This document shows, piece by piece, positions 2,704 to 51,952 of a stretch of DNA of 64,000 nt (positions within the stretch are counted from its first letter, which is position 1; every line of letters starts with the position of its first letter). The position numbers and the translations under genes are program-made. Origin of the DNA: an uncultured bacterium (GTDB lineage: Bacteria; Bacillota_I; Bacilli_A; RFN20; CAG-826). The stretch spans positions 8,042-72,041 of the forward strand of contig CASFSS010000007.1 in the NCBI GenBank assembly GCA_949297445.1, in the 5' to 3' direction. The notes beneath the pieces were generated by a model. The model worked only from the letters and a program-made list of their open reading frames with translations, ran no database searches and was not told the DNA's origin.

Positions 2704-3382
2704 AGGAGAAAATAAAACGCTGACAATTTGTTCATCACAAGATGTTTTTTTAGAGTTGAATCCTTCGGCCACTTTATTATTAAAATTGTTCGTAACTGAC
2801 CATAATTTTTTGATGAAATTTCGTGCAGATTTGAAAGAAAACGCTCATTTAGCAGTTATTTTTGCTGATTTTTCTAGCGGGAAAGTTGAAATAAATGGAT
2901 TGACAAAACTTGTCGGAAACGGCGCTAAAGTTGAATGGAAATTAGCGTCCTTATCAAAGGATGTAGATAGAAAAAATATTGATGTTTCCTTTATCCATGA
3001 GGCGCCTAATACATATGCAACAATGGAAAATTATGGCATCGCTAAAGACGAGTCAAAGCTGATTTTTACCGGTGTTAATCACGTTATGAATGGTATGTCT
3101 AAATCGTTTTCTAGCCAGCAAGCTAAAATAATTGTTTTTGACAAAAATAGTCATGGAGAAGCATCACCAATATTAAAAATCGACGAAAATGATATTGTCG
3201 CTAAACATTCGGCAATTGTCGGTCAATTAAATGATGACCATATTTATTATTTAATGACGCGCGGCCTGACTATCGATGATGCTAAGAAATTAATTACATT
3301 AGGTTATTTAATGCCAATTTGTAATTATTTTGACGACAACAATAAGACACAAATGGAAAAAATAGTTATGGAGAGAATGTAG
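2681..3382 (+). CDS. sufD: Fe-S assembly protein SufD, short form (about 233 aa, C-terminal domain only)
   Basis: Sits between sufC and sufS. C-terminal SufB/SufD-family motifs (...LMTRGLTIDDAKKLITLGYL). Overlaps sufC by 23 nt. Roughly half the usual SufD length. Confidence 0.7.
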   Translation: MKKIIINEGENKTLTICSSQDVFLELNPSATLLLKLFVTDHNFLMKFRADLKENAHLAVIFADFSSGKVEINGLTKLVGNGAKVEWKLASLSKDVDRKNIDVSFIHEAPNTYATMENYGIAKDESKLIFTGVNHVMNGMSKSFSSQQAKIIVFDKNSHGEASPILKIDENDIVAKHSAIVGQLNDDHIYYLMTRGLTIDDAKKLITLGYLMPICNYFDDNNKTQMEKIVMERM

Positions 3383-3383
3383 A

Positions 3384-4613
3384 ATGTACGATGTATACGA
3401 AATTAGAAAAGATTTCCCAATGTTAAATGGCGTAAAAATGCAAGGCAAGCCACTTGTATTTTTGGATAATGCATCAACTACATTTAAACCATATGAAGTC
3501 ATAGAAGCAATTGAACGCTATTATAAATTTGAGACTAGTAATTCTCATCGTGGTGACTATGATTTATGTTTTAATATTGATAGACAAATTGATGCTGCAC
3601 GTCATGAAATCGCAACATTTATTAATTCACACGACGATGAGATTGTTTTTACCAGTGGCTCTTCGATGTCATTAAATTTGGTTGCTTACGGTTATGCAGT
3701 TAAATACTTAAAAAGTGATGACGAGATACTTATTACACAAGCGGAACATGCTAGTAACGTTTTACCTTGGTTCAAGGTTGCTGAAATAACAGGTTGTAAA
3801 ATTTCATACATTCCTTTGACAGATGACGGACGTCTAACATTAGATAATGTTGAAAAAACCATCACACCAAAAACAAAAATTATTGCCGTTGCACATGTAA
3901 GCAATGTATTAGGTTATATTGTTGATATTAAAAATATTGCACGCATTGCGCATGCTCATAATGCTATTTTAATATGCGATGGTGCACAATCCGTCCCTCA
4001 TATGAAAATAGATGTCCAAGATCTTGACTGTGATTTTTTAGCTTTTTCAGGTCATAAAATGCTTGGACCAACCGGCATTGGCGTTCTTTATGGCAAATAT
4101 CACTTATTAGATATGATGGATCCCCTTATGAGCGGCGGCGGAATGAATGCAAAATTTGATATGTGTGGTGATGTCTCATACTTAAATCCACCAGTAAGAT
4201 TTGAAGCTGGAACTATCAATATTGAAGGCATCGTTGGTCTAGCAGCAGCAGTTAGATATTTAAAGAAAATTGGCATGGAAAATATTCAAATGCACGAAAA
4301 CGAAATTCGAAAATATTTGATTGCTAGACTTAGAGATGTTGCTAATATAAAAATATACAATGAAAATGCCGAAGGTGGAATCGTTACCTTCAATATTAAA
4401 GGCGTTTTTGCTCAAGATGAAGCAACCTATTTGAATTCGCGCGGAATCGCCATTCGTTCAGGCCAACATTGCGCTAAGATTTTAATTGATTTTCTTGGTG
4501 AAGTCGCAACTTGTCGCGCTTCAATTTATTTATACACAACAAAAGAAGATTGTGATGCTTTAGTAGATGCTTTAAAAAGCGGAGGAGATTTTTTAGATGC
4601 CTATTTCTCTTAG
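3384..4613 (+). CDS. sufS: Cysteine desulfurase SufS (class II aminotransferase V)
   Basis: PLP-lysine region FSGHKMLGPTGIGVLYGK and active-site loop RSGQHCA; operon position. Confidence 0.93.
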   Translation: MYDVYEIRKDFPMLNGVKMQGKPLVFLDNASTTFKPYEVIEAIERYYKFETSNSHRGDYDLCFNIDRQIDAARHEIATFINSHDDEIVFTSGSSMSLNLVAYGYAVKYLKSDDEILITQAEHASNVLPWFKVAEITGCKISYIPLTDDGRLTLDNVEKTITPKTKIIAVAHVSNVLGYIVDIKNIARIAHAHNAILICDGAQSVPHMKIDVQDLDCDFLAFSGHKMLGPTGIGVLYGKYHLLDMMDPLMSGGGMNAKFDMCGDVSYLNPPVRFEAGTINIEGIVGLAAAVRYLKKIGMENIQMHENEIRKYLIARLRDVANIKIYNENAEGGIVTFNIKGVFAQDEATYLNSRGIAIRSGQHCAKILIDFLGEVATCRASIYLYTTKEDCDALVDALKSGGDFLDAYFS

Positions 4614-9062: not shown

Positions 9063-9065
9063 AAT

Positions 9066-9213
9066 TTTGTTTCAGGGCAGGGCGCAATTCCCAATCGGTG
9101 GTAAACCCCACGAACCTTATATGGTAGATTTGGTGCAATTCCAAAGGCGACAGTTATAGTCTGGATGAAAGAAACATTTATTTGTTACATATGCCCTGAT
9201 GAGGGCTTTTTTT
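9066..9213 (+). promoter_or_regulatory. FMN riboswitch (RFN element) with a downstream hairpin that acts as terminator and/or SD-sequestor
   Basis: GGGCAGGGCGCAATTCCCAATCGGTGGTAAACCCCACGAACC...GGTGCAATTCCAAAGGCGACAGTTATAGTCTGGATGAAAGAAA matches the RFN consensus (GGGTGAAATTCCC...ACCGGCGGTA...GGTGCAATTCC...CGACAGT.AAAGTCTGGATG.GAGA). Hairpin gccct-gatg-agggc at 9193-9206 is followed by T7. The GAGGG in its 3' arm is the only SD-like sequence before ATG 9214. Confidence 0.85.
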
Positions 9214-9924
9214 ATGAATATCTTAAGTGCTGTGTGTTCAATTATCTTAATTATTCTTTGGATGATGGCTTTTGTGTATGTTCTTTTTAAAGAATTAGGG
9301 CGTAAACAATCGTATCGTCCATCGGTCAAATTTATTGTGCGAGTTGCTATTTTTGGTGCTTTATCAACCATTTTATATACCGTGCCCGGTTTAAAATTTT
9401 CTGTTCCTTTTCTCCCCTCATTTCTCGAGTTTCATTTTGATGAAATCCCAATTCTGATTGCAAGTTTTGCCTATGGACCATTGACTGGCGTTGCAATTAT
9501 TTTTATTAAAACACTTATAAAATTACCAATGACTTCAACGTTAGGAGTTGGTGAATGCGCTGACTTTCTTTATAGTCTCGTCTTTATTTTGCCAGCCGCA
9601 CTAATTTATAAAAAACATCGAAAGTTTTCTGGCACAATTATTGGGCTTTCTGTTGGCACTATCACTCAGTTATTAGTTTCAATGTTCTTTACCGTATATG
9701 TCATGGTTCCCTTTTACATGTACGTAATGGGTTTTTCTAGGGAAGCGTTGCTCTCTATGTGTTCAATGGCTAATCCGGCAATTACAAATCTTGAAATGGA
9801 ATTAGGCCTTTACGGCATATTACCCTTTAATGCCATAAAAGATGCAATCGTTATTTTTGTTACATTAATTGTTTATAAATCTCTGCGACGTTTTATTGAG
9901 AATCTTGATATTGCTAAAAACTAA
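9214..9924 (+). CDS. ribU: ECF-transporter S component, predicted riboflavin transporter RibU
   Basis: Multi-TM protein of the ECF S-component type, immediately downstream of the FMN riboswitch. Start moved to ATG 9214 (MNILSAV...) because the track start at 9199 lies inside the riboswitch hairpin. Confidence 0.75.
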   Translation: MNILSAVCSIILIILWMMAFVYVLFKELGRKQSYRPSVKFIVRVAIFGALSTILYTVPGLKFSVPFLPSFLEFHFDEIPILIASFAYGPLTGVAIIFIKTLIKLPMTSTLGVGECADFLYSLVFILPAALIYKKHRKFSGTIIGLSVGTITQLLVSMFFTVYVMVPFYMYVMGFSREALLSMCSMANPAITNLEMELGLYGILPFNAIKDAIVIFVTLIVYKSLRRFIENLDIAKN

Positions 9925-10007: not shown

Positions 10008-11303
10008 ATGATTGCCAAAGCTCGGAAACTTCAATTGCCTAAAATTTTCACCGAGGAGCTTCCAACTCTTCGTTTTGTTGACCCCGATTTTGTCTATATC
10101 GCAACGAATAATGCACGCTGTAAAACGGCAGATTTATGCATCAAAGAAGGTGACTATTTAAAGATTGGTCAAATAATTGGCATGCGACATGGTGGCTTTT
10201 TTGAGCAACCAATTCATTCGACTGTTAGCGGTACATTTGTTGGTCTAGAAAAACATTATCATCGTAATGGAAAGATGGTTGATTTTATAAAGATTCAAAA
10301 CGATAAAAAAGATGTTTTTGATGAATCGCTATTTACTCGTTCGGACGAAGAAATTTTTAAAATGACTAAAGATGAAATTACCAAGGTGGTAAAAGATACT
10401 GCGCTGGTTGGTTTAGGTGGTTCATCTTTCCCAACTTATATTAAGTTTCAAACTGATTTACCAATTCATACGATTTTAATTAATGGTATTGAATGTGAGC
10501 CTTTATTGACTTCCGATTATCGCATTATGATGGAATACCCAGACCGTATCATGAAAGGTATTTCATATGTCATGCACGCTTTTAATGCAAAAAAAGCCAT
10601 TATTTGTTTTAAGAAAAAGCACAAAGATTTAAAACTTTTATACAAAGAGATAATTCGACGATACCCAGATATTGATGTGTCAATTGGCTTAATGGATGAC
10701 TTTTATCCGCAAGGCTGGGAAATTGCCATGATTAAAAAGGCCTTGCATATCGATGTTAAATCTGGTGAATTACCGAGTAAATATGGTGTCATGAATTTCA
10801 ATGTTTCAACTATTGTTGGTCTATATAAAGCTTTGAAGTATAATATGCCAGTTGTTAAAAGGAATATCACCATCACCGGCAACGGAATCAAATATCCACA
10901 AAATTTGCGAGTGCGTGTTGGAACAAGTATTCGTGAGCTTATTAATCTATGTGGTGGATATGTCGATGATGGACCATTTGTGTTTATTGTTGGTGGGCCA
11001 ATGATGGGAGCCTCTTTAGATTGTGATGATGTCATTATTACAAAAACGGTGACATCGATCATCGTCTTGAAGAAAATTGACTTTCAAGAAAATCCATGTA
11101 TTCGATGCGGAAGCTGTGGCTATTCATGCCCCACTAAATTGATGCCTTGGGCAATAATGAATGCTGTTAAATCATTAAATAAAGAGCGATTGAAAGCGTT
11201 GCATCCGGAACGCTGTATTGAGTGCGGATTATGTGCATATGCATGTACGAGCAAAATAAATGTAACTGACTACATTAGAAGGGCAAAGTTGTTGGCTAAA
11301 TAA
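10008..11303 (+). CDS. rnfC: Rnf electron-transport complex subunit C
   Basis: NADH/FMN-binding segment GLGGSSFPTYIKF and two ferredoxin-type motifs CIRCGSCGYSCP and CIECGLCAYACTS. Confidence 0.92.
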   Translation: MIAKARKLQLPKIFTEELPTLRFVDPDFVYIATNNARCKTADLCIKEGDYLKIGQIIGMRHGGFFEQPIHSTVSGTFVGLEKHYHRNGKMVDFIKIQNDKKDVFDESLFTRSDEEIFKMTKDEITKVVKDTALVGLGGSSFPTYIKFQTDLPIHTILINGIECEPLLTSDYRIMMEYPDRIMKGISYVMHAFNAKKAIICFKKKHKDLKLLYKEIIRRYPDIDVSIGLMDDFYPQGWEIAMIKKALHIDVKSGELPSKYGVMNFNVSTIVGLYKALKYNMPVVKRNITITGNGIKYPQNLRVRVGTSIRELINLCGGYVDDGPFVFIVGGPMMGASLDCDDVIITKTVTSIIVLKKIDFQENPCIRCGSCGYSCPTKLMPWAIMNAVKSLNKERLKALHPERCIECGLCAYACTSKINVTDYIRRAKLLAK

Positions 11304-11305
11304 TT

Positions 11306-12430
11306 ATGGTAACTTTTGTTAAGAGTAAAGCGCCCCATATCCGAAGAAAAGATTCGGTCAACCGCATGATGCTTGATGTCATCATCGCTTTGTTGCCGGT
11401 TACTGTTTTTGCTTTTGTAATGAGCGGACTAGATGCCCTAAAAGTTGTTGGCATATCTTTAGTGACGATGGTTGCCGCTGAAGCAATTTATGTTTGGATT
11501 CGATATACGCCATATCGTGATATTAAATATAAGGCAAACAAAGAAGAATTACCGACGCTTAGAGAACGTACGCGTTTCCGCTTCAATGCCTTTAAGGAGA
11601 AAACCAAGATTGCTTTTTCCAATTATCGCCTATATAACTTATTGTCGCCAATCGTAAGCGCATTAATTTTTGCGATGTGTATGCCTGCCGCTGCGCCGTG
11701 GTGGACAGTGTTAGTTTCTTCCTTATTTGGCATTGTGGTTGCTAAACTTCTTTTTGGTGGTCTAGGTCAAAATATCTTTAACCCAGCTGCGGCCGGAAGA
11801 GTCTTTTTTGGTCTCTGCTTCGGAACGACTGTTGCAACCTATTCGAATAATTTTGTCGATGTGGTTGCTGGCGGAACTCCTTTAGGACAATTGACCGGCG
11901 ATTTGCTCAATATAAATCAATATTCCTTGTTGGATTTATTTGTTGGTTTAGTTCCTGGCGCATTAGGCGAGGTGAGTACCGTTTGTATTTTGGCCGGAGC
12001 AATCTATTTATTTGCTCGTCGAGCGGCCGATATTCGAACGACTTTATCGATGATAATAACATTTGTTATTTTAGTCTTTTTCGCCTCGATTGCTTTGGGT
12101 GCCGATAATTATTTTGAATATACAGTCTATCATCTTTTATCGGGCGGTTTATTATTTGGGGCGGTATTTATGGTTACCGATCCTGTTACAACTCCTGCGA
12201 ATAAATTTGGTAGGATTTTGTATGGCACATTGGTAGCTATTTCAACCTTTTTAATTCGCTTTTTTGGCGCTTACCCAGAAGGTGTGGCTTTCTCGATTTT
12301 AATTTGCAATATATTAGTTCCGCTATTGGATTCACCAAAGTTAGCAATGAATCGTTTTCGCTGGTATCAGCCACTTATTATTGCTGGACTTATTGGAATA
12401 TTTGTGGGGGTAGCCTTCTTGGCTTTATAA
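11306..12430 (+). CDS. rnfD: Rnf complex subunit D (NqrB family)
   Basis: Polytopic membrane protein with NPAAAGRVFF and a conserved Thr-containing flavinylation region; operon position. Confidence 0.92.
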   Translation: MVTFVKSKAPHIRRKDSVNRMMLDVIIALLPVTVFAFVMSGLDALKVVGISLVTMVAAEAIYVWIRYTPYRDIKYKANKEELPTLRERTRFRFNAFKEKTKIAFSNYRLYNLLSPIVSALIFAMCMPAAAPWWTVLVSSLFGIVVAKLLFGGLGQNIFNPAAAGRVFFGLCFGTTVATYSNNFVDVVAGGTPLGQLTGDLLNINQYSLLDLFVGLVPGALGEVSTVCILAGAIYLFARRAADIRTTLSMIITFVILVFFASIALGADNYFEYTVYHLLSGGLLFGAVFMVTDPVTTPANKFGRILYGTLVAISTFLIRFFGAYPEGVAFSILICNILVPLLDSPKLAMNRFRWYQPLIIAGLIGIFVGVAFLAL

Positions 12431-12434
12431 AGCG

Positions 12435-12956
12435 ATGAAAAACTACATAAAATTTCCCTTGGTGTTAGGCTTAATTAGTGCGTGTAGTGGTTTGCTTATT
12501 GGCGGAGTTTATATGCTAGTCAATCCAACGATTGTCAATAATCAAAATGCCACTGAATTAGCGGCTCGGCAAGAAGTTTTTGCCGAGGCGACCGCCTTTG
12601 ATAAAATTGAACGCGACTTTAGCGATTGTACTTATTTAAAAGAGGTTTATGCCGCGACAAATGAAGATGGTTTACTAGGATATTTATATCGTGGCGAGGG
12701 AGCAAATTCTTATGGAGCAATTTCTCTATATGCCGGCATTATATCAGACGAGGTTGGAACGCTTAAGACTGTGTCTTTGTTGGAAAACACCCAGTCTTAT
12801 GCTTCAATTGTGAACGATTGGGTTAATGTGACTTTTTTAGCCCCAATCGATGATACAAATTCTATCGATGTATCTTGTGGCGCGACAAGAGGTGCAACCA
12901 TCGTTAAAAATATTGTTTTAGAAGCGCAAGCAGATTATTTGAAAGGAGGTTTTTAA
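12435..12956 (+). CDS. rnfG: Rnf complex subunit G (FMN-binding, NqrC family)
   Basis: N-terminal TM anchor plus FMN-bind domain with the S-G-A-T-type flavinylation motif (SCGATRGATIV). Confidence 0.85.
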   Translation: MKNYIKFPLVLGLISACSGLLIGGVYMLVNPTIVNNQNATELAARQEVFAEATAFDKIERDFSDCTYLKEVYAATNEDGLLGYLYRGEGANSYGAISLYAGIISDEVGTLKTVSLLENTQSYASIVNDWVNVTFLAPIDDTNSIDVSCGATRGATIVKNIVLEAQADYLKGGF

Positions 12957-13676
12957 ATGGAAAAAATCAGCAAAAAAAAGTTAATTTTGAATGGTTTATT
13001 TGTTGAAAACCCCTTATTTGTTATGCTTTTAGGAACCTGTCCATCCCTAGCGACGACAACTTCTATTGAAAGTGCATTAGGAATGGGTATTCTCTTTTTG
13101 CTAGTGTTAATCTGCTCGAATGTATTAATTTCTTTATGCCGAAAAATTATTCCGGATGATATACGCATTCCATCATTTATTGTCATTATTGCCACTTTCG
13201 TCACAATTGTTAAATTATTGACGGAAGCTTTTTTGCCTGAACTATATTCGACACTTGGTGTCTTTATTTCATTGATTGTCGTCAATTGTATTGTTTTAGG
13301 AAGAGCAGAGGCGTTTGCGTCTAAAAACAATGTGGTCGACTCTCTTTTAGACGGAATCGGAATGGGATTAGGATTTACGATGGCTTTGCTAATCATTGCT
13401 TTCTTCCGCGAATTAATTGGAACAGGCGGTTTTACAATTGGCAAAGTTTTTACATTCATTCCTGAAATGGAGTGGTTGCCTTTAAAAGATTATGCAATTT
13501 CCTTTTTTGTTATGCCTGGTGGTGCCTTCTTAGTTTTAGGAATTATTTTAGCCATCATGGCCGCTTATAAAAATAGCAAAGAAGCATTCAAAAAGAGTGT
13601 TTTAAAAGCCGAAAAAGAAAAAGCAAAATTACAAGCTCAAGCGCAGAATTCACCCGATAATGGAGGTAACAAATAA
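12957..13676 (+). CDS. rnfE: Rnf complex subunit E
   Basis: NqrD/RnfE family, LLGTCPSLATTT motif, 239 aa. Confidence 0.9.
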   Translation: MEKISKKKLILNGLFVENPLFVMLLGTCPSLATTTSIESALGMGILFLLVLICSNVLISLCRKIIPDDIRIPSFIVIIATFVTIVKLLTEAFLPELYSTLGVFISLIVVNCIVLGRAEAFASKNNVVDSLLDGIGMGLGFTMALLIIAFFRELIGTGGFTIGKVFTFIPEMEWLPLKDYAISFFVMPGGAFLVLGIILAIMAAYKNSKEAFKKSVLKAEKEKAKLQAQAQNSPDNGGNK

Positions 13677-14263
13677 TGAACGAATTTGTTGTATTTGTCC
13701 TCGCTATTATTAATGGAATGTTGATTGATAATGTAATATTATCGCGCTTTTATGGCATTTGTCCTTTCCTAGGCGTTTCTAAGAAAACTTCTAGCGCCTT
13801 AGGGATGGGAGTTGCTGTTACCCTTGTCATTTTATTAGCCACTTGCATATGTTGGCCAATTTATACATATGTGTTGACTCCTGCGAGCATCACTTTTATG
13901 GACACGATTGTCTTTATTTTGGTCATTGCATCTTTGGTACAAGTTGCCGCTTTAATCATCAAAAAATATAGTCCTACTTTGTATAATGCTCTTGGTATTT
14001 ATTTACCTTTAATTACGACAAACTGTGCTGTTTTAGGTGTTGTACAAGGCAATGCCGATAGTGCATATTCATTCTTAGATTCGCTCGCAAATGCTCTAGG
14101 TACTGGAATCGGCTTTTTAATTGTCATCGTTCTATTTTCATACATTAGGACCCATCTCGATGCGATGGATATTCCTAAAGCGATGAAGGGAGTGCCTATT
14201 GCTTTAATTACCGCCTCATTGATGGCGCTTGCCTTTTTAGGCTTTTCGGGGTTAATCTCATGA
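13676..14263 (+). CDS. rnfA: Rnf complex subunit A
   Basis: NqrE/RnfA family, YGICPFLGVSKKTSSALGMG motif, 195 aa. Confidence 0.9.
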   Translation: MNEFVVFVLAIINGMLIDNVILSRFYGICPFLGVSKKTSSALGMGVAVTLVILLATCICWPIYTYVLTPASITFMDTIVFILVIASLVQVAALIIKKYSPTLYNALGIYLPLITTNCAVLGVVQGNADSAYSFLDSLANALGTGIGFLIVIVLFSYIRTHLDAMDIPKAMKGVPIALITASLMALAFLGFSGLIS

Positions 14264-14478
14264 TTATATTAATTTCTCAAGTTGATTATATTCTTATTAC
14301 GATTGCCATTGTTGTAGTCTTGATTTTTATTTTTGCCATCTCGCTATATCTTTATAAGAAAACTCCCGAACCAACTGGTGGCCGCGTCAAAAAAAGTGAA
14401 GCATGTAAAACTTGTAGCATGTCTTCTTGTTCGTTTCGTGTAGAAGAAAAAACGAAAGGAAATAATCCAGATGAATGA
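14260..14478 (+). CDS. Small membrane protein with a Cys-rich tail (CKTCSMSSC), translationally coupled between rnfA and rnfB
   Basis: 72-aa ORF with one TM helix. ATGA overlap with the rnfA stop and 8-nt overlap with the rnfB start. Could be a spurious frame; no family recognised. Confidence 0.3.
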   Translation: MIILISQVDYILITIAIVVVLIFIFAISLYLYKKTPEPTGGRVKKSEACKTCSMSSCSFRVEEKTKGNNPDE

Positions 14479-14830
14479 GGGGCAATTTATTTTATTAGAA
14501 TCAGCGGTTGACTTGACATTTCTTTGGTCATTCTTAATTTTGCTTGCTTTAGGTGCGGTGCTTGGCGTTTTAATTTTCGTGGCCGTCAAATTTTTTACCG
14601 TCAAAGAAGATCCGCGCATTGCGGATGTTGAAAAAATGCTACCGAACGCTAATTGCGGTGCGTGTGGCTATCCTGGCTGTCACGGCTTTGCCGAAGCCTT
14701 AGTAAAGGGCAAAGAAAAGAAAGTCTCGAAATGTCGCGTTGGTAAAGAAGCGACAACATATGATCCTATTATTGCTTATTTAAGAGCCCATCCAAATGAA
14801 GATGGCAGTTCAATTGAGGTAACGAAATGA
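14471..14830 (+). CDS. rnfB: RnfB-like subunit, N-terminal domain only (TM helix plus CGACGYPGC...C cluster motif; no 2x[4Fe-4S] ferredoxin domain)
   Basis: FTVKEDPRIADVEKMLPNANCGACGYPGCHGFAEALVKG...KC aligns with the E. coli RsxB N-terminus ([29 protein letters not shown]...). The protein ends at 119 aa, where canonical RnfB continues with ferredoxin domains. Confidence 0.75.
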   Translation: MNEGQFILLESAVDLTFLWSFLILLALGAVLGVLIFVAVKFFTVKEDPRIADVEKMLPNANCGACGYPGCHGFAEALVKGKEKKVSKCRVGKEATTYDPIIAYLRAHPNEDGSSIEVTK

Positions 14831-15789
14831 AAAAAGTTTTTTATGCTTTTTTATCGTTTATGTTTTTGCCAACTCTTTTTTCTTGTTCATCGGCACCACA
14901 AGGTGTCTCTAAAGAGATTTATGCCTTTTCAACTTTAATCAATATTACGGCGTACGATTGTGATGAAACATACGTCAATGCTGCCGCTCAAATATTGGAG
15001 ACATATAACAAGTTGGCGGATAATTTTTTGTCGTATAGTGGATGTATCAACGTTAACGATATAAATAATGCTCCGAAAGAAACTCCTGTTGCAATCTCCG
15101 ATGAACTATTAAATTTATTAATTTTTTCTGAAAAAATGATGGCGGCGACCGACGGTTATTTTGACCCCTATTTAGGAACTATCACCTCTTTATATAAAGA
15201 AGCAATCGAATCAGAAACTGCGCCTAATATGGAACAAATTGCCGAGCTATTAAAGAAACGTCAAAATGGCCAAGTTACAATAGATAGTGTCAATAAAACC
15301 GTTACTTTGAGCGGTGATATTTCAATTGATTTAGGGGCGATTGCCAAGGGCTACGCTTTAAATAAAGTGAAAGAATATTTTGCCGGTAATAATATAACGC
15401 ATTATATTGTTAACGGTGGACTTTCTTCTATTGTTTTAGGTGAGAAACCAAACGATGAAAATGGATATAGTGTCGGCGTTAAGGGCCTCGATGATTATGT
15501 TGTGTATTTAAAAAATGTTTCCTTAGCAACTTCCTCAATATCTGAGCAATCATTTTCTATTAACGGCGAATTATATACGCATATTATCAATCCGTTTACC
15601 GGTTCTTCAAAGCCTTTATATTCTTTAGTTTTATTAAAAGGCAACGACGCAGGAATGCTCGACGCTTTTTCGACCGCTTTTATGAATATGAGCGAAGAGA
15701 TGATTGTTACAAAAGCAGAAGAGTACGGCTTTTCATATTTAGTTAGTAAGGATGGATCAAACATATATATTCGGAGCACTGATTTATGA
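14827..15789 (+). CDS. apbE: FAD:protein FMN transferase ApbE, lipoprotein
   Basis: Signal peptide plus lipobox LFSC; conserved GAIAKGYA motif; directly after rnfB, as in many rnf operons. Confidence 0.88.
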   Translation: MKKVFYAFLSFMFLPTLFSCSSAPQGVSKEIYAFSTLINITAYDCDETYVNAAAQILETYNKLADNFLSYSGCINVNDINNAPKETPVAISDELLNLLIFSEKMMAATDGYFDPYLGTITSLYKEAIESETAPNMEQIAELLKKRQNGQVTIDSVNKTVTLSGDISIDLGAIAKGYALNKVKEYFAGNNITHYIVNGGLSSIVLGEKPNDENGYSVGVKGLDDYVVYLKNVSLATSSISEQSFSINGELYTHIINPFTGSSKPLYSLVLLKGNDAGMLDAFSTAFMNMSEEMIVTKAEEYGFSYLVSKDGSNIYIRSTDL

Positions 15790-16175
15790 AAGAGGTTTTA
15801 AAGCGAAGAAGGGTCGAAATAGCAATTATTGGCGTTTTGCTGGTTATTTTGATTGCTTTTGCCGCTTCTTTTGCTTTTTATCGGCCAACTACTAATTTGT
15901 CAGCAACGATTTATAAGCGCGATGAAATATTGCTTGAATTAGACTTAACAAAGGAAGAGGAAGAACGAACTTTTTATTTAGAAAACATTGATGGCGAGAT
16001 GCTTATTGGCGTTAAAAAGAATGCTATCGCCGTTTTAAAATGCGATTGTCCACATCAAGACTGCGTCTATCAAGGATATGTGACGACGGCTAATGTTCCA
16101 ATCATCTGTGCTCATTACGCGATAACAATAGTTTTGACCTCTAATGATAGTGAAACGGATGTGATGGTTGGATGA
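15786..16175 (+). CDS. NusG domain II (NusG_II)-containing membrane-anchored protein
   Basis: N-terminal TM, then a small beta-rich domain with CDCPHQDC and ICAHYAIT motifs. Same family as the small proteins usually paired with Gx transporters. Overlaps the apbE stop. Confidence 0.55.
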   Translation: MKEVLKRRRVEIAIIGVLLVILIAFAASFAFYRPTTNLSATIYKRDEILLELDLTKEEEERTFYLENIDGEMLIGVKKNAIAVLKCDCPHQDCVYQGYVTTANVPIICAHYAITIVLTSNDSETDVMVG

Positions 16176-16753
16176 AATATATTCGACGCATTACATTTTT
16201 ATCGACATTAATCGCCCTTTCGCTCGCCTTATCGATAATTGAATCTTTTTATTTTCCATCATTAATAATTCCTGGCATTAAATTAGGACTGGCTAACATC
16301 GTCATTTTGTTAGTACTATATTTATTTGGTTTTAAAGAGGCGATGTTCGTATCGCTTCTACGTGTTTTTATTACATCTTTATTAATTGGCAATATTTTTC
16401 AAATTGGATTTTGCATGTCGATGTTTGGAGCCATTTTCTCGCTTCTAGTTATGTTTATTTTAAAAGCTATTTTCAAAAAAATATCCGTGGTGACGGTTTC
16501 TATTTTTGGCTCGCTATTTCATATTATTGGGCAGATTGTAGTGGCAATTATTTTCCTTGAAAATTTTTATATTATTTATTACTTCCCATTAATTGCTATC
16601 ATCGCAATTGTAACCGGGCTTTGTATCGGGGTAGTTGCTAATAAAATTTTAAAGTGCAACGCTTCTATAATTTTGTCGAGTTCTTATAAGGAAGATAAAA
16701 AACCTTCCGCACAAAGGGAAGGTTTTCTAATAAATGAAACTGATAAAAATTAA
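16172..16753 (+). CDS. Gx transporter family protein (heptaprenyl diphosphate synthase component I-like, ECF-S-like membrane protein)
   Basis: About 190 aa, five or six TM helices, glycine-rich GxGxxGx-like segments; overlaps the NusG_II gene stop. Confidence 0.6.
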   Translation: MKYIRRITFLSTLIALSLALSIIESFYFPSLIIPGIKLGLANIVILLVLYLFGFKEAMFVSLLRVFITSLLIGNIFQIGFCMSMFGAIFSLLVMFILKAIFKKISVVTVSIFGSLFHIIGQIVVAIIFLENFYIIYYFPLIAIIAIVTGLCIGVVANKILKCNASIILSSSYKEDKKPSAQREGFLINETDKN

Positions 16754-16920
16754 TCTTCGACGCTGATGGCACCTACTGGGCATTCAACTTCGAGTTCATC
16801 AACTTCAGGATTGACTGCTTCGGCTTTACCATCATCATCAAATTCGAAGACATCAGGGCGGGTGCCTACGCACAAACCGCAGCCGATGCAAGTATCTTTA
16901 TCAACATGAGCTTTTGGCAT
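16750..16920 (-). CDS. Small ferredoxin (single CxxCxxC...CP iron-sulfur cluster domain, 56 aa)
   Basis: Not in the ORF track (under 60 aa). Reverse-strand translation MPKAHVDKDTCIGCGLCVGTRPDVFEFDDDGKAEAVNPEVDELEVECPVGAISVED, with GGAGG 7 nt upstream. Its stop overlaps the Gx-transporter stop convergently. Confidence 0.75.
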   Translation of the reverse strand: MPKAHVDKDTCIGCGLCVGTRPDVFEFDDDGKAEAVNPEVDELEVECPVGAISVED

Positions 16921-23585: not shown

Positions 23586-23928
23586 ACTCCGGCCCAGGCG
23601 GCTGCTGGCGAGAAATCGTTAGAGGAAAGTCCATGCTCGCACAAGCTGTGATGCTTGTAGTGATTGTGCTAACGGAAAAAATAACGTTAGGTATGCGGGA
23701 GCGCATAACGGCAGGGATAGTCTAAAACTCCGGTCATGATGAAAACCTTGAAAGTGCCACAGTGACGATTTTGCTAGAAATGGCAAAGTGGAACGTTGGT
23801 AAACCCCACAAGCGAGAAACCCAAATTTGGTAGGGGAAGTCACCTATAGAAAAGAATAGATGGTGGCATGCGAATGCATAGATAAATTGTCGCCCTTTGA
23901 CAGAACATGGCTTATCGGGTCGGAACTC
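23586..23928 (+). ncRNA. rnpB: RNase P RNA, bacterial type B
   Basis: GAGGAAAGTCCATGCTCGCAC near the 5' end. ...GAAAGTGCCACAGTGACG...GGAACG.GGTAAACCCCACAAGCGAGAAACCCAAATTTGGTAGGGGAA... is near-identical to the B. subtilis rnpB core. 3' ...ACAGAACATGGCTTA.... End coordinates approximate. Confidence 0.88.
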
Positions 23929-51431: not shown

Positions 51432-51506
51432 TGGTTGGGGCGACTGGGATCGAACCAGTGAATGGTGAGTTCAGAGCCCACTGCCTTACCGCTTGGCTAC
51501 ACCCCA
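51432..51506 (-). tRNA. tRNA-Gln (anticodon CUG)
   Basis: Reverse-strand cloverleaf TGGGGTGTAGCCAAGCGGTAAGGCA-GTGGG-CTCTGAA-CTCAC-...GTCGCCCCAACCA, with anticodon loop CUCUGAA and encoded CCA. Confidence 0.75.
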
Positions 51507-51523
51507 ACGGGATAAAGCATTAG

Positions 51524-51611
51524 TGGTGCCCAAGACCGGACTTGAACCGGTATGGTATCATCTACCGCAGGATTTTAAGTCCTGTGCGTCTACCTATTTC
51601 GCCACTTGGGC
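51524..51611 (-). tRNA. tRNA-Leu (anticodon UAA), long variable arm
   Basis: GCCCAAGTGGCGAAATAGGTAGACGCACAGGACTTAAAATCCTG...GGTTCAAGTCCGGTCTTGGGCACCA. Confidence 0.85.
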
Positions 51612-51614
51612 ACC

Positions 51615-51690
51615 TGGTCTCCCGTAAACGGTTCGAACGTTCGACCCCTTGATTAAAAGTCAAGTGCTCTACCAGCTGAGCTAACGGGAG
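51615..51690 (-). tRNA. tRNA-Lys (anticodon UUU)
   Basis: CTCCCGTTAGCTCAGCTGGTAGAGCACTTGACTTTTAATCAAGGGGTCGAACGTTCGAACCGTTTACGGGAGACCA. Confidence 0.85.
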
Positions 51691-51699
51691 GTGATTGTT

Positions 51700-51775
51700 T
51701 GGTTGGGGTGACTGGGATCGAACCAGTGAGATGACAGAGTCAAAGTCTGTTGCCTTACCGCTTGGCTACACCCCA
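51700..51775 (-). tRNA. tRNA-Gln (anticodon UUG)
   Basis: TGGGGTGTAGCCAAGCGGTAAGGCAACAGACTTTGACTCTGTCATC...GTCACCCCAACCA; close to B. subtilis tRNA-Gln. Confidence 0.85.
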
Positions 51776-51778
51776 AGA

Positions 51779-51862
51779 TGGTGGAGGAAGGTGGATTTGA
51801 ACCACCGAACCCTAAGGAACTGATTTACAGTCAGCCGCGTTTGGCCGCTTCGCTATTCCTCC
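51779..51862 (-). tRNA. tRNA-Tyr (anticodon GUA), long variable arm
   Basis: GGAGGAATAGCGAAGCGGCCAAACGCGGCTGACTGTAAATCAGTTCCTTAGGGTTCGGTGGTTCAAATCCACCTTCCTCCACCA; near-identical architecture to B. subtilis tRNA-Tyr. Confidence 0.85.
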
Positions 51863-51876
51863 AGCGAACCGCGTGA

Positions 51877-51952
51877 TGGTGGATGTTGAGGGGTTTGAAC
51901 CCCCGACCTCCGCCGTGTAAAGGCGATGCTCTCCCAGCTGAGCTAAACATCC
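51877..51952 (-). tRNA. tRNA-Val (anticodon UAC)
   Basis: GGATGTTTAGCTCAGCTGGGAGAGCATCGCCTTTACACGGCGGAGGTCGGGGGTTCAAACCCCTCAACATCCACCA. Confidence 0.85.

Follow-up and report, generated by a model that had tools for sequence, protein, structure and literature searches.

Anaerobes rely on Rnf as their main ion pump linked to ferredoxin, and an rnf operon whose RnfB lacks the presumed ferredoxin acceptor raises the question of how electrons enter the complex. Such an operon lies in a stretch of 64,000 nucleotides (nt; the whole stretch is hereafter called the window) from an uncultured bacterium of the lineage CAG-826 (contig CASFSS010000007.1 of assembly GCA_949297445.1, positions 8,042 to 72,041), where a rnfB gene for only 119 amino acids (aa) is preceded by an open reading frame (ORF) for a 72-aa membrane protein with a cysteine-bearing tail, referred to here as the mini-protein. 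The initial annotation of this locus concluded that either the electron-input module of this Rnf has been split into stand-alone parts, or the complex uses a different donor or acceptor. The explanation that we favour, at a probability of about 0.6, is that a minimal RnfB of a known type is combined with an accessory mini-protein resembling NqrM, a small cysteine protein associated with the NQR pump.

In this low-GC bacterium, a relative of the Mollicutes and Erysipelotrichia, the operon specifies a full Rnf complex that is ordinary in every subunit except RnfB (Table 1), with all four cysteine ligands of RnfA/E and every other Rnf subunit intact. The window RnfB is a natural minimal RnfB, consisting of a transmembrane (TM) anchor and a mobile one-cluster domain (FdI) with no ferredoxin-type domain. 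Its sole Pfam match is to the FeS family (PF04060, E=5e-14); no Fer4-family match was returned by the Pfam scan, and the C-terminal ferredoxin-type domain with at least two clusters is absent. Against the RnfB/RsxB models of NCBIfam, which are 190-293 positions long, it spans model positions 1-82 and nothing beyond, and because it is short, and for no other reason, it falls under the curated RnfB cutoffs (65.6 bits against 68.7 for TIGR01944, and far below cutoff for all of the equivalog RnfB models). The four cysteines of FdI (C62-x2-C65-x4-C70-x17-C88) are invariant in the family alignment. A profile of the short-RnfB family aligns to residues 2-91 of A. woodii RnfB (9ERI_B, 333 aa), 4-90 of C. 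tetanomorphum RnfB (7ZC6_B, 274 aa) and 3-75 of A. vinelandii RnfB (8AHX_B, 174 aa), which together with the PF04060-only match bears out the initial annotation of this gene as the N-terminus of RnfB alone. What is shared with these canonical proteins is thus their N-terminal ~90 residues, i.e. the TM anchor and the C-x2-C-x4-C-x16/17-C domain, whereas the window RnfB has nothing of their C-terminal domain, which is fixed on RnfC and holds another 2-7 [4Fe-4S] clusters.

Structure prediction agrees with this assignment. The N-terminal anchor is hydrophobic, is modelled by AlphaFold2 (AF2) as a confident helix (residues 3-41) and aligns with the TM helix of the solved RnfB chains. The AF2 model as a whole (predicted local distance difference test, pLDDT, 90.9) comprises this long helix and a cluster domain that is small and helical, with the last ~13 residues folded back onto the latter; its top Foldseek matches are 9ERI_B and the N-terminal cluster domain of the corrinoid iron-sulphur protein (CoFeSP). 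Database relatives of the short RnfB number 254, and the 120 listed are all FeS-only proteins of 92-124 aa, with no full-length form among them, from metagenome-assembled genomes (MAGs) of Acholeplasmataceae, Izemoplasma, Erysipelotrichaceae and Anaeroplasmataceae; MAGs of these groups and of 'Bacilli bacterium' are the closest named relatives of the window. The family tail is conserved (DPIIAYL..HP..DG); the window RnfB has a lineage-specific tail, HPNEDGSSIEVTK. One related rnfB, in locus L151, encodes 160 aa and is extended at the C-terminus by a sequence that is unrelated and not of ferredoxin type. The start of the window gene is ambiguous: the ATG at 14471, preceded at 11 nt by the better Shine-Dalgarno sequence (AGGA), gives 119 aa, and the TTG at 14513 gives 105 aa, the usual length in the family. 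The longer form adds a non-conserved N-terminal extension of 14 residues, and in the two close relatives compared (P0002 and P0003) an ATG likewise lies upstream, but the extensions are dissimilar.

An artefact might be supposed, in which a full-length rnfB has been shortened by a frameshift or by mis-assembly and the 72-aa ORF is a chance frame. Nothing was found in favour of this, the start codon of rnfB being the only uncertainty. Six independent metagenome contigs, four from the species and two from a sister species, share the layout; apbE already begins within the stop codon of rnfB (at 14827, the TGA overlapping the apbE start as ATGA); the motif C-x2-C-x2-C-x3-C occurs nowhere outside rnfC in the entire window, nor in any frame near rnfB; and both genes have hundreds of homologues. 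An open frame of 72 codons would moreover arise by chance with P ~0.004 at the base composition of the window (36% GC, standard TGA stops), and this one shows a ratio of nonsynonymous to synonymous substitution rates (dN/dS) of 0.27. Since six assemblies agree, apbE begins in the rnfB stop and no ferredoxin motif lies nearby, frameshift or assembly error is excluded, its probability being practically nil, and the initial view that no full-length RnfB could be restored here was correct.

A one-cluster RnfB has a biochemical precedent. That of T. maritima has a mass of 10.56 kDa and one predicted cluster (Kuhns et al. 2020, PMC7414866; also PMC9588780), and the purified six-subunit T. maritima Rnf has clostridial ferredoxin:NAD+ oxidoreductase activity that is strictly Na+-dependent, T. 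maritima being the only organism for which ferredoxin:NAD+ activity with a minimal RnfB has been shown (PMC7414866). The window operon has the same gene order, rnfCDGEAB, with rnfB as the last structural gene, and an RnfB that is likewise a TM helix plus a single FdI [4Fe-4S] domain. It differs in lineage, the window coming from low-GC Bacilli related to Mollicutes, and from a T. maritima-like locus (L084, whose RnfG has the T. maritima RnfG structure 3DCZ as its only solved relative) in that L084 rnfB follows rnfA after 10 nt, with no ORF between them, and encodes a protein without the (H/T)P..DG tail. The window RnfB belongs to this known minimal (Thermotoga-type) form and is not a new kind. 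Because the one-cluster RnfB of T. maritima works with ferredoxin, neither a split input module nor another donor is required, and the alternatives offered by the initial annotation are left unsupported; by analogy with T. maritima, the window Rnf is most likely still an ion-translocating ferredoxin:NAD+ oxidoreductase.

In the solved Rnf complexes FdI is a flexible shuttle that passes electrons directly to the intramembrane iron-sulphur (Fe-S) centre of RnfA/E (PMC12174285), whilst the C-terminal FdII+III of canonical RnfB, fixed on RnfC, is the presumed acceptor of electrons from ferredoxin (PMC12174285, PMC9588780). The window RnfB retains exactly the part that contacts the membrane core. 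Most simply, ferredoxin would react with FdI itself, as must happen in Thermotoga: the FdI cluster would be directly reduced or oxidised by a small acidic ferredoxin, for which the 56-aa protein encoded next to the operon is a plausible choice. Direct docking is consistent both with the strongly acidic character of that ferredoxin and with the more basic FdI of short RnfBs, whose net charge averages +0.2, against -3.3 in long RnfBs (p=5e-5, for sequences that are not phylogenetically independent), and is +4 in the window. The N-terminal cluster domain of CoFeSP takes electrons directly from low-potential donors, which also argues against a change of donor in Rnf; this domain (4DJD_C, 2YCL_A) has the PF04060 fold and the cysteine motif of RnfB FdI, although it is a soluble part of a methyl-transfer protein, with no membrane anchor and no ion pump. 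We consider a minimal RnfB with direct ferredoxin docking to be likely.

The alternative that this Rnf no longer uses ferredoxin, its partner being, for instance, a flavodoxin, some docking enzyme, or a flavoprotein system outside the cytoplasm encoded by the downstream NusG_II and PF07456 genes, draws on the loss of the whole acceptor domain from RnfB, on the apbE, NusG_II and PF07456 genes that travel with the operon, and on the FMN riboswitch and ECF transporter directly upstream. Nevertheless, the one-cluster RnfB of T. maritima accepts ferredoxin (PMC7414866), RnfC retains its NADH, FMN and Fe-S sites, and a Thermotoga-type ferredoxin gene abuts the operon, so that we hold a change of donor to be very improbable. 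The ferredoxin gene itself, reported by the initial annotation as a 56-aa, single-cluster protein downstream on the opposite strand, is indeed found there (16750-16920, minus strand), with promoter-like and terminator-like sites of its own. The protein is very acidic, and among solved structures it is closest to the 60-aa ferredoxin chain 1ROF/1VJW (E=1e-12), which we take to be the mono-cluster ferredoxin of T. maritima; the 66-aa chain 2Z8Q/1SIZ, presumably the mono-cluster ferredoxin of Pyrococcus, is also matched. Given this best relative, the 56-aa ferredoxin is a plausible physiological partner of Rnf, and a one-cluster RnfB may go together with one-cluster ferredoxins in the organisms that have it. 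The gene adjoins the operon in the window species and its sister species only, and it was not found in 25 of the 26 other short-RnfB loci; adjacency was accordingly rejected as a conserved feature, holding as it does only within the genus.

With the short RnfB explained by a known form, the mini-protein family is the new part of the locus. The 72-aa ORF is a real, conserved gene under purifying selection, as the initial annotation had expected from its overlaps on both sides: the rnfA TGA overlaps its ATG as ATGA, its own TGA overlaps the rnfB ATG by 8 nt (ATGAATGA), and comparison with the sister species gives 43% identity with a dN/dS of ~0.27, a rough value, dS being saturated. The encoded protein has an N-out TM helix (residues ~7-34), a juxtamembrane YKKTPEP and three cysteines, C49-x2-C52-x4-C57, in a tail that its charged residues place in the cytoplasm, a topology that is the same as that of RnfB. 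As a homologue search with the single 72-aa sequence reached its own species only, the family was found with a profile built from locus-derived copies. In 24 of 26 short-RnfB genome loci an ORF of 53-91 aa occupies the gap between rnfA and rnfB, and these ORFs are mutually alignable, with a TM helix, a juxtamembrane K-T-P-x-P-K-G-C-E and then C-x2-C-x4-9-C. The profile search returned 98 clusters, all annotated as 'hypothetical protein' and with no Pfam domain, and an exhaustive profile search gave 402 cluster representatives (E<=0.001), of which the 150 listed have 51-101 aa.

About 90% of the members have four cysteines in the pattern C-x9-C-x2-C-x4-9-C, with a varying spacing to the last. 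The distal C-x2-C...C triad is invariant in the family and the first, juxtamembrane cysteine nearly so, the latter being absent from the window, the sister species and a few other lineages, with no consistent substitute. Pfam and NCBIfam scans of the family found no credible family model, matches such as those to Bunya_G2 and sulfocyanin being discarded as chance-level, and none of the 26 members scanned matched Fer4, their motif being C-x2-C-x4-9-C and not C-x2-C-x2-C...C-P. In the literature we found no description of this family, of an extra ORF in the rnf operon, or of a truncated RnfB in Acholeplasma or these lineages, and papers on cultured relatives treat the operon as a standard rnfCDGEAB (PMC11122141). 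The Rnf accessions listed for Peloplasma have one-gene gaps after the third and the fifth listed genes (PMC11122141), and related Acholeplasmataceae loci have extra sequence between rnfG and rnfE and the mini-protein gene between rnfA and rnfB. In the Acholeplasmataceae/Izemoplasma-type operons (L003, L004, L005, L007 and L010) ~1.6 kb separates the rnfG match from rnfE (~2900-4500), corresponding to a much enlarged RnfG or to an extra gene, at a position that matches a gap in the Peloplasma list.

The family is closely tied to the short RnfB. Its hidden Markov model (HMM; E<0.001) detects a member at 24 of 26 short-RnfB loci and at none of 54 long-RnfB loci (Fisher p=2e-18). A degenerate scan of metagenome DNA for KTPxPKGCE, which samples only the four-cysteine subfamily bearing that motif, yielded 120 loci, 111 of them with a family member; a complete, FeS-only rnfB follows the mini-protein gene directly in all 95 of the metagenome members with at least 330 nt downstream, with a median of 104 aa from the start of the TM helix and a ferredoxin motif in none, and rnfA was detected immediately upstream in most. 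The RnfB tail (H/T)P..DG, furthermore, is present at 22 of 24 loci with the mini-protein gene and at no locus without it. We regard it as highly probable that the mini-protein is a functional partner of Rnf. Short RnfBs do occur without the gene, in a Bacilli MAG (L023), in a member of the Brevinematales (L028) and in the Thermotoga-like L084, and because of these absences, and because the mini-protein has neither a ferredoxin motif nor detectable ferredoxin homology, it is not an obligatory substitute for the lost domains. The suggestion that stand-alone parts must replace those domains is not supported, on this account and given the restriction of the ferredoxin adjacency to one genus. One further locus, L031, is labelled as a Methanomethylophilaceae archaeon, yet it carries rnfA of bacterial type and 30% GC, the mini-protein gene and a short rnfB; because such genes stand under an archaeal label, the contig is probably mis-binned.

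Comparable small proteins occur beside a full-length RnfB. The rnf operons of Saprospiraceae and other Bacteroidota have, directly after rnfA, an ORF of 60-71 aa encoding a TM helix and C-x2-C-x-C-x3-C (six examples in Table 1), and alignment of the Saprospiraceae ORF with the mini-protein family by hhalign (probability 84%) suggests that the two are probably related. In the three operons checked (L027, L054 and L075) this ORF is followed by a gene for a ~285-aa FNR-like NAD-binding protein and then by a full-length rnfB; in L027 the rnfC product is a genuine RnfC. Such a layout is reminiscent of the transition proposed from RNF to NQR, with an NqrF-like reductase and an NqrM-like small protein beside RnfB.

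As to the role of the mini-protein, a parallel is offered by NqrM (DUF539, PF04400), a small single-TM, four-cysteine protein whose gene is co-transcribed with apbE and which is believed to be required for installing the intramembrane [2Fe-2S] centre of NqrD/E; RnfA/E hold a homologous centre, and no RNF counterpart of NqrM is described in that work (PMC12174285). The mini-protein may be an accessory factor analogous to NqrM, and not a permanent electron-carrying subunit, in which case the RnfA/E centre in the membrane, and perhaps the FdI cluster too, would receive iron or an Fe-S unit from it during assembly. The two proteins have in common a length of ~60-80 aa, a single TM helix, four cytoplasmic cysteines (in the mini-protein family, the window copy having three) and an apbE-containing pump operon; they differ in cysteine spacing and in gene position, NqrM following apbE at the end of its operon whereas the mini-protein gene lies between rnfA and rnfB.

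Several properties of the family are as expected of such a factor: one of the cysteines is dispensable, the spacing varies and the tail has no predicted autonomous fold (AF2 of the protein alone gives a confident helix at 7-34 and a cysteine tail with pLDDT below 50). The mini-protein also evolves at the rate of apbE (44% identity to the sister species, dN/dS 0.31), unlike rnfA, rnfE and rnfB (83-85% identity, dN/dS 0.07-0.09; rnfG has 59% identity), its dN being ~5 times that of RnfA/E/B. The persistence of short RnfB without it in the three loci named above, and the company of the Saprospiraceae protein with a full-length RnfB, fit the same role.

A number of observations weigh against this explanation. 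PF04400 is not among the families recurrently matched by the 26 mini-protein members (E<=10), and there is no NCBIfam match either; because no PF04400 match exists, the link to NqrM is one of analogy, not homology. The essential cysteine of NqrM is reportedly, by the account of Kostyrko et al. in 2016, the juxtamembrane one, and that is the very cysteine lost in the window genus. To our knowledge, NqrM has been reported only from NQR-containing bacteria. The mini-protein gene lies in the operon one gene away from apbE, upstream of it and between structural genes. A dedicated factor is not generally needed for Rnf, since most Rnf-containing bacteria have no such gene, and all associations between the mini-protein and the short RnfB are confounded by shared ancestry. 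Finally, the two-way association with short RnfB and the co-occurrence with the RnfB tail fit a stable partner of RnfB equally well.

That last point leads to the main rival, the strongest form of the earlier split-module idea, in which the mini-protein would be a permanent seventh subunit of Rnf, a redox-active Fe-S 'mini-ferredoxin' beside the RnfB anchor that relays electrons between soluble ferredoxin and FdI in place of the lost domain. The strict two-way linkage to the short RnfB and the joint occurrence with an RnfB tail that is lineage-specific and, in the model, folded back onto FdI are both in its favour, whereas T. maritima and other lineages have a one-cluster RnfB without the mini-protein, and a probably related small protein coexists with full-length RnfB in Saprospiraceae. 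Three invariant and one nearly invariant cysteines would suffice for a cluster, yet their spacing is variable, one presumed ligand has been lost without consistent replacement in the window genus and others, the tail is predicted, at low confidence, to be unstructured, and the ~5-fold higher dN sets the protein apart from RnfA/E/B. Descent from the RnfB N-terminus is possible: in a weak profile match (hhalign, 59%) the two TM helices coincide and C-x2-C-x4-C meets the motif of RnfB. That the gene is flanked by two structural genes, rnfA and rnfB, and overlaps both at its start and stop is a further argument for a subunit; however, apbE, which encodes a maturation enzyme, overlaps in the same way, and for this reason the overlap is no sign of a structural role and was rejected as a mark of one.

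The FeoB-associated cysteine-rich membrane protein (PF12669) is likewise a tiny TM helix with a cysteine-rich tail next to an iron-handling membrane system, but with feoB as its genomic context; 10 of the 26 mini-protein members match PF12669 weakly (best E=0.0019, all below threshold) and the window copy does not. These matches count on the side of an assembly factor, but they are probably driven by composition. On balance, and largely by analogy, we place a role in assembly rather than electron transfer at a little short of an even chance, and we think a permanent seventh subunit unlikely; what these two leave falls to other roles. Somewhat more tentative than the assembly role is the proposal that the family is an unrecognised, dedicated Rnf component, be it the first RNF-specific NqrM counterpart, which would install the buried [2Fe-2S] centre of RnfA/E, or a membrane-anchored mini Fe-S subunit to which electron entry passed upon the loss of the ferredoxin-type domains from RnfB.

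Table 1. Positions of the rnf genes and other features of the window and of related loci (locus names precede positions outside the window)
Feature	Position	Strand	Evidence or remark
FMN riboswitch	9064-9180	+	107 bits, above gathering
Terminator-like hairpin	9193-9206		
ECF-transporter S component, presumably riboflavin	9199-9924	+	FMN riboswitch-controlled; directly upstream of rnfC
rnfC, 431 aa, NAD(H)/FMN subunit, two [4Fe-4S] clusters	10008..11303	+	TIGR01945 E=4e-100, above cutoff; Pfam RnfC_N, Complex1_51K, SLBB, Fer4 dicluster
rnfD, 374 aa	11306..12430	+	same protein is PF03116 NQR2_RnfD_RnfE in identical contigs; tblastn match to RnfD in all related loci
rnfG, 173 aa, divergent	12435..12956	+	TIGR01947 weak, E=2.5e-7, below cutoff
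rnfE, 239 aa	12957..13676	+	PF02508 Rnf-Nqr in identical contigs; two conserved Cys (LGTCPSLA, VVNCIVLG)
rnfA, 195 aa	13676..14263	+	TIGR01943 E=1e-70, above cutoff; conserved Cys (YGICPFLG, TTNCAVLG)
Mini-protein, 72 aa	14260..14478	+	ORF, overlaps, family HMM E=1.7e-20
Minimal rnfB, 119 aa (105 aa from TTG 14513)	14471..14830	+	PF04060 only
apbE flavin transferase, 320 aa, lipoprotein-like N-terminus	14827..15789	+	PF02424 E=9e-44
NusG_II-domain membrane protein, 129 aa, co-operonic	15786..16175	+	PF07009 E=6.5e-16
PF07456 (Hpre_diP_synt_I / Gx-transporter-like) membrane protein, 193 aa, last cluster gene	16172..16753	+	PF07456 E=4e-39
Mono-cluster [4Fe-4S] ferredoxin, 56 aa, convergent with operon	16750..16920	-	PF13459/PF13370
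Class-B RNase P RNA	23590-23919	+	270 bits
Six-tRNA gene cluster	51435-51952	-	
Small TM + 4-Cys ORFs	L027:4798-5010, L054:4143-4337, L075:4758-4973, L035:4885-5082, L051:4679-4861, L053:4800-4997		Bacteroidota rnf operons
FNR-like gene	L027:5129-5986		
rnfB, 160 aa	L151:2009-2491		

The ten genes from rnfC to the PF07456 gene lie nearly gapless on the plus strand (10008-16753), and no terminator-like site was found on that strand across the stretch from rnfA to rnfB (13676-14830). The divergent RnfG has no match to Pfam FMN_bind in a scan of the window protein, but it retains the flavinylation-type motif D-x-x-x-G-A-T as DVSCGAT, which is kept in the sister species. In many of these operons the rnf cluster ends with the NusG_II and PF07456 genes as a conserved tail: a NusG_II gene also follows apbE in L001, L002, L008, L012, L018, L019 and L087, and the PF07456 gene is kept downstream in most related loci. 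Because the ECF S-component gene is directly upstream of rnfC, flavin uptake adjoins a flavin-dependent pump and its flavin transferase. Elsewhere in the window, the class-B RNase P RNA and the tRNA gene cluster both accord with a host among the low-GC Bacillota or the relatives of the Mollicutes.

These results show that the one-cluster RnfB is used not by Thermotoga alone but by a whole Mollicutes-related radiation of gut and sediment bacteria, and this breadth supports the view that the mobile FdI alone suffices as an interface for ferredoxin. The entry of electrons into Rnf and the building of its membrane-buried Fe-S centre are being worked out only since structures exist, and the mini-protein, as a small operon-tied gene product with the hallmarks of metal handling, is a concrete candidate for a part in Rnf assembly or electron entry, in operons that current annotation lists as six-gene Rnf, skipping the conserved mini-protein gene. 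If this reading holds, then, taken with the Saprospiraceae proteins, small cysteine-rich single-pass proteins would recur in the pumps of the RNF/NQR family as a component so far overlooked.

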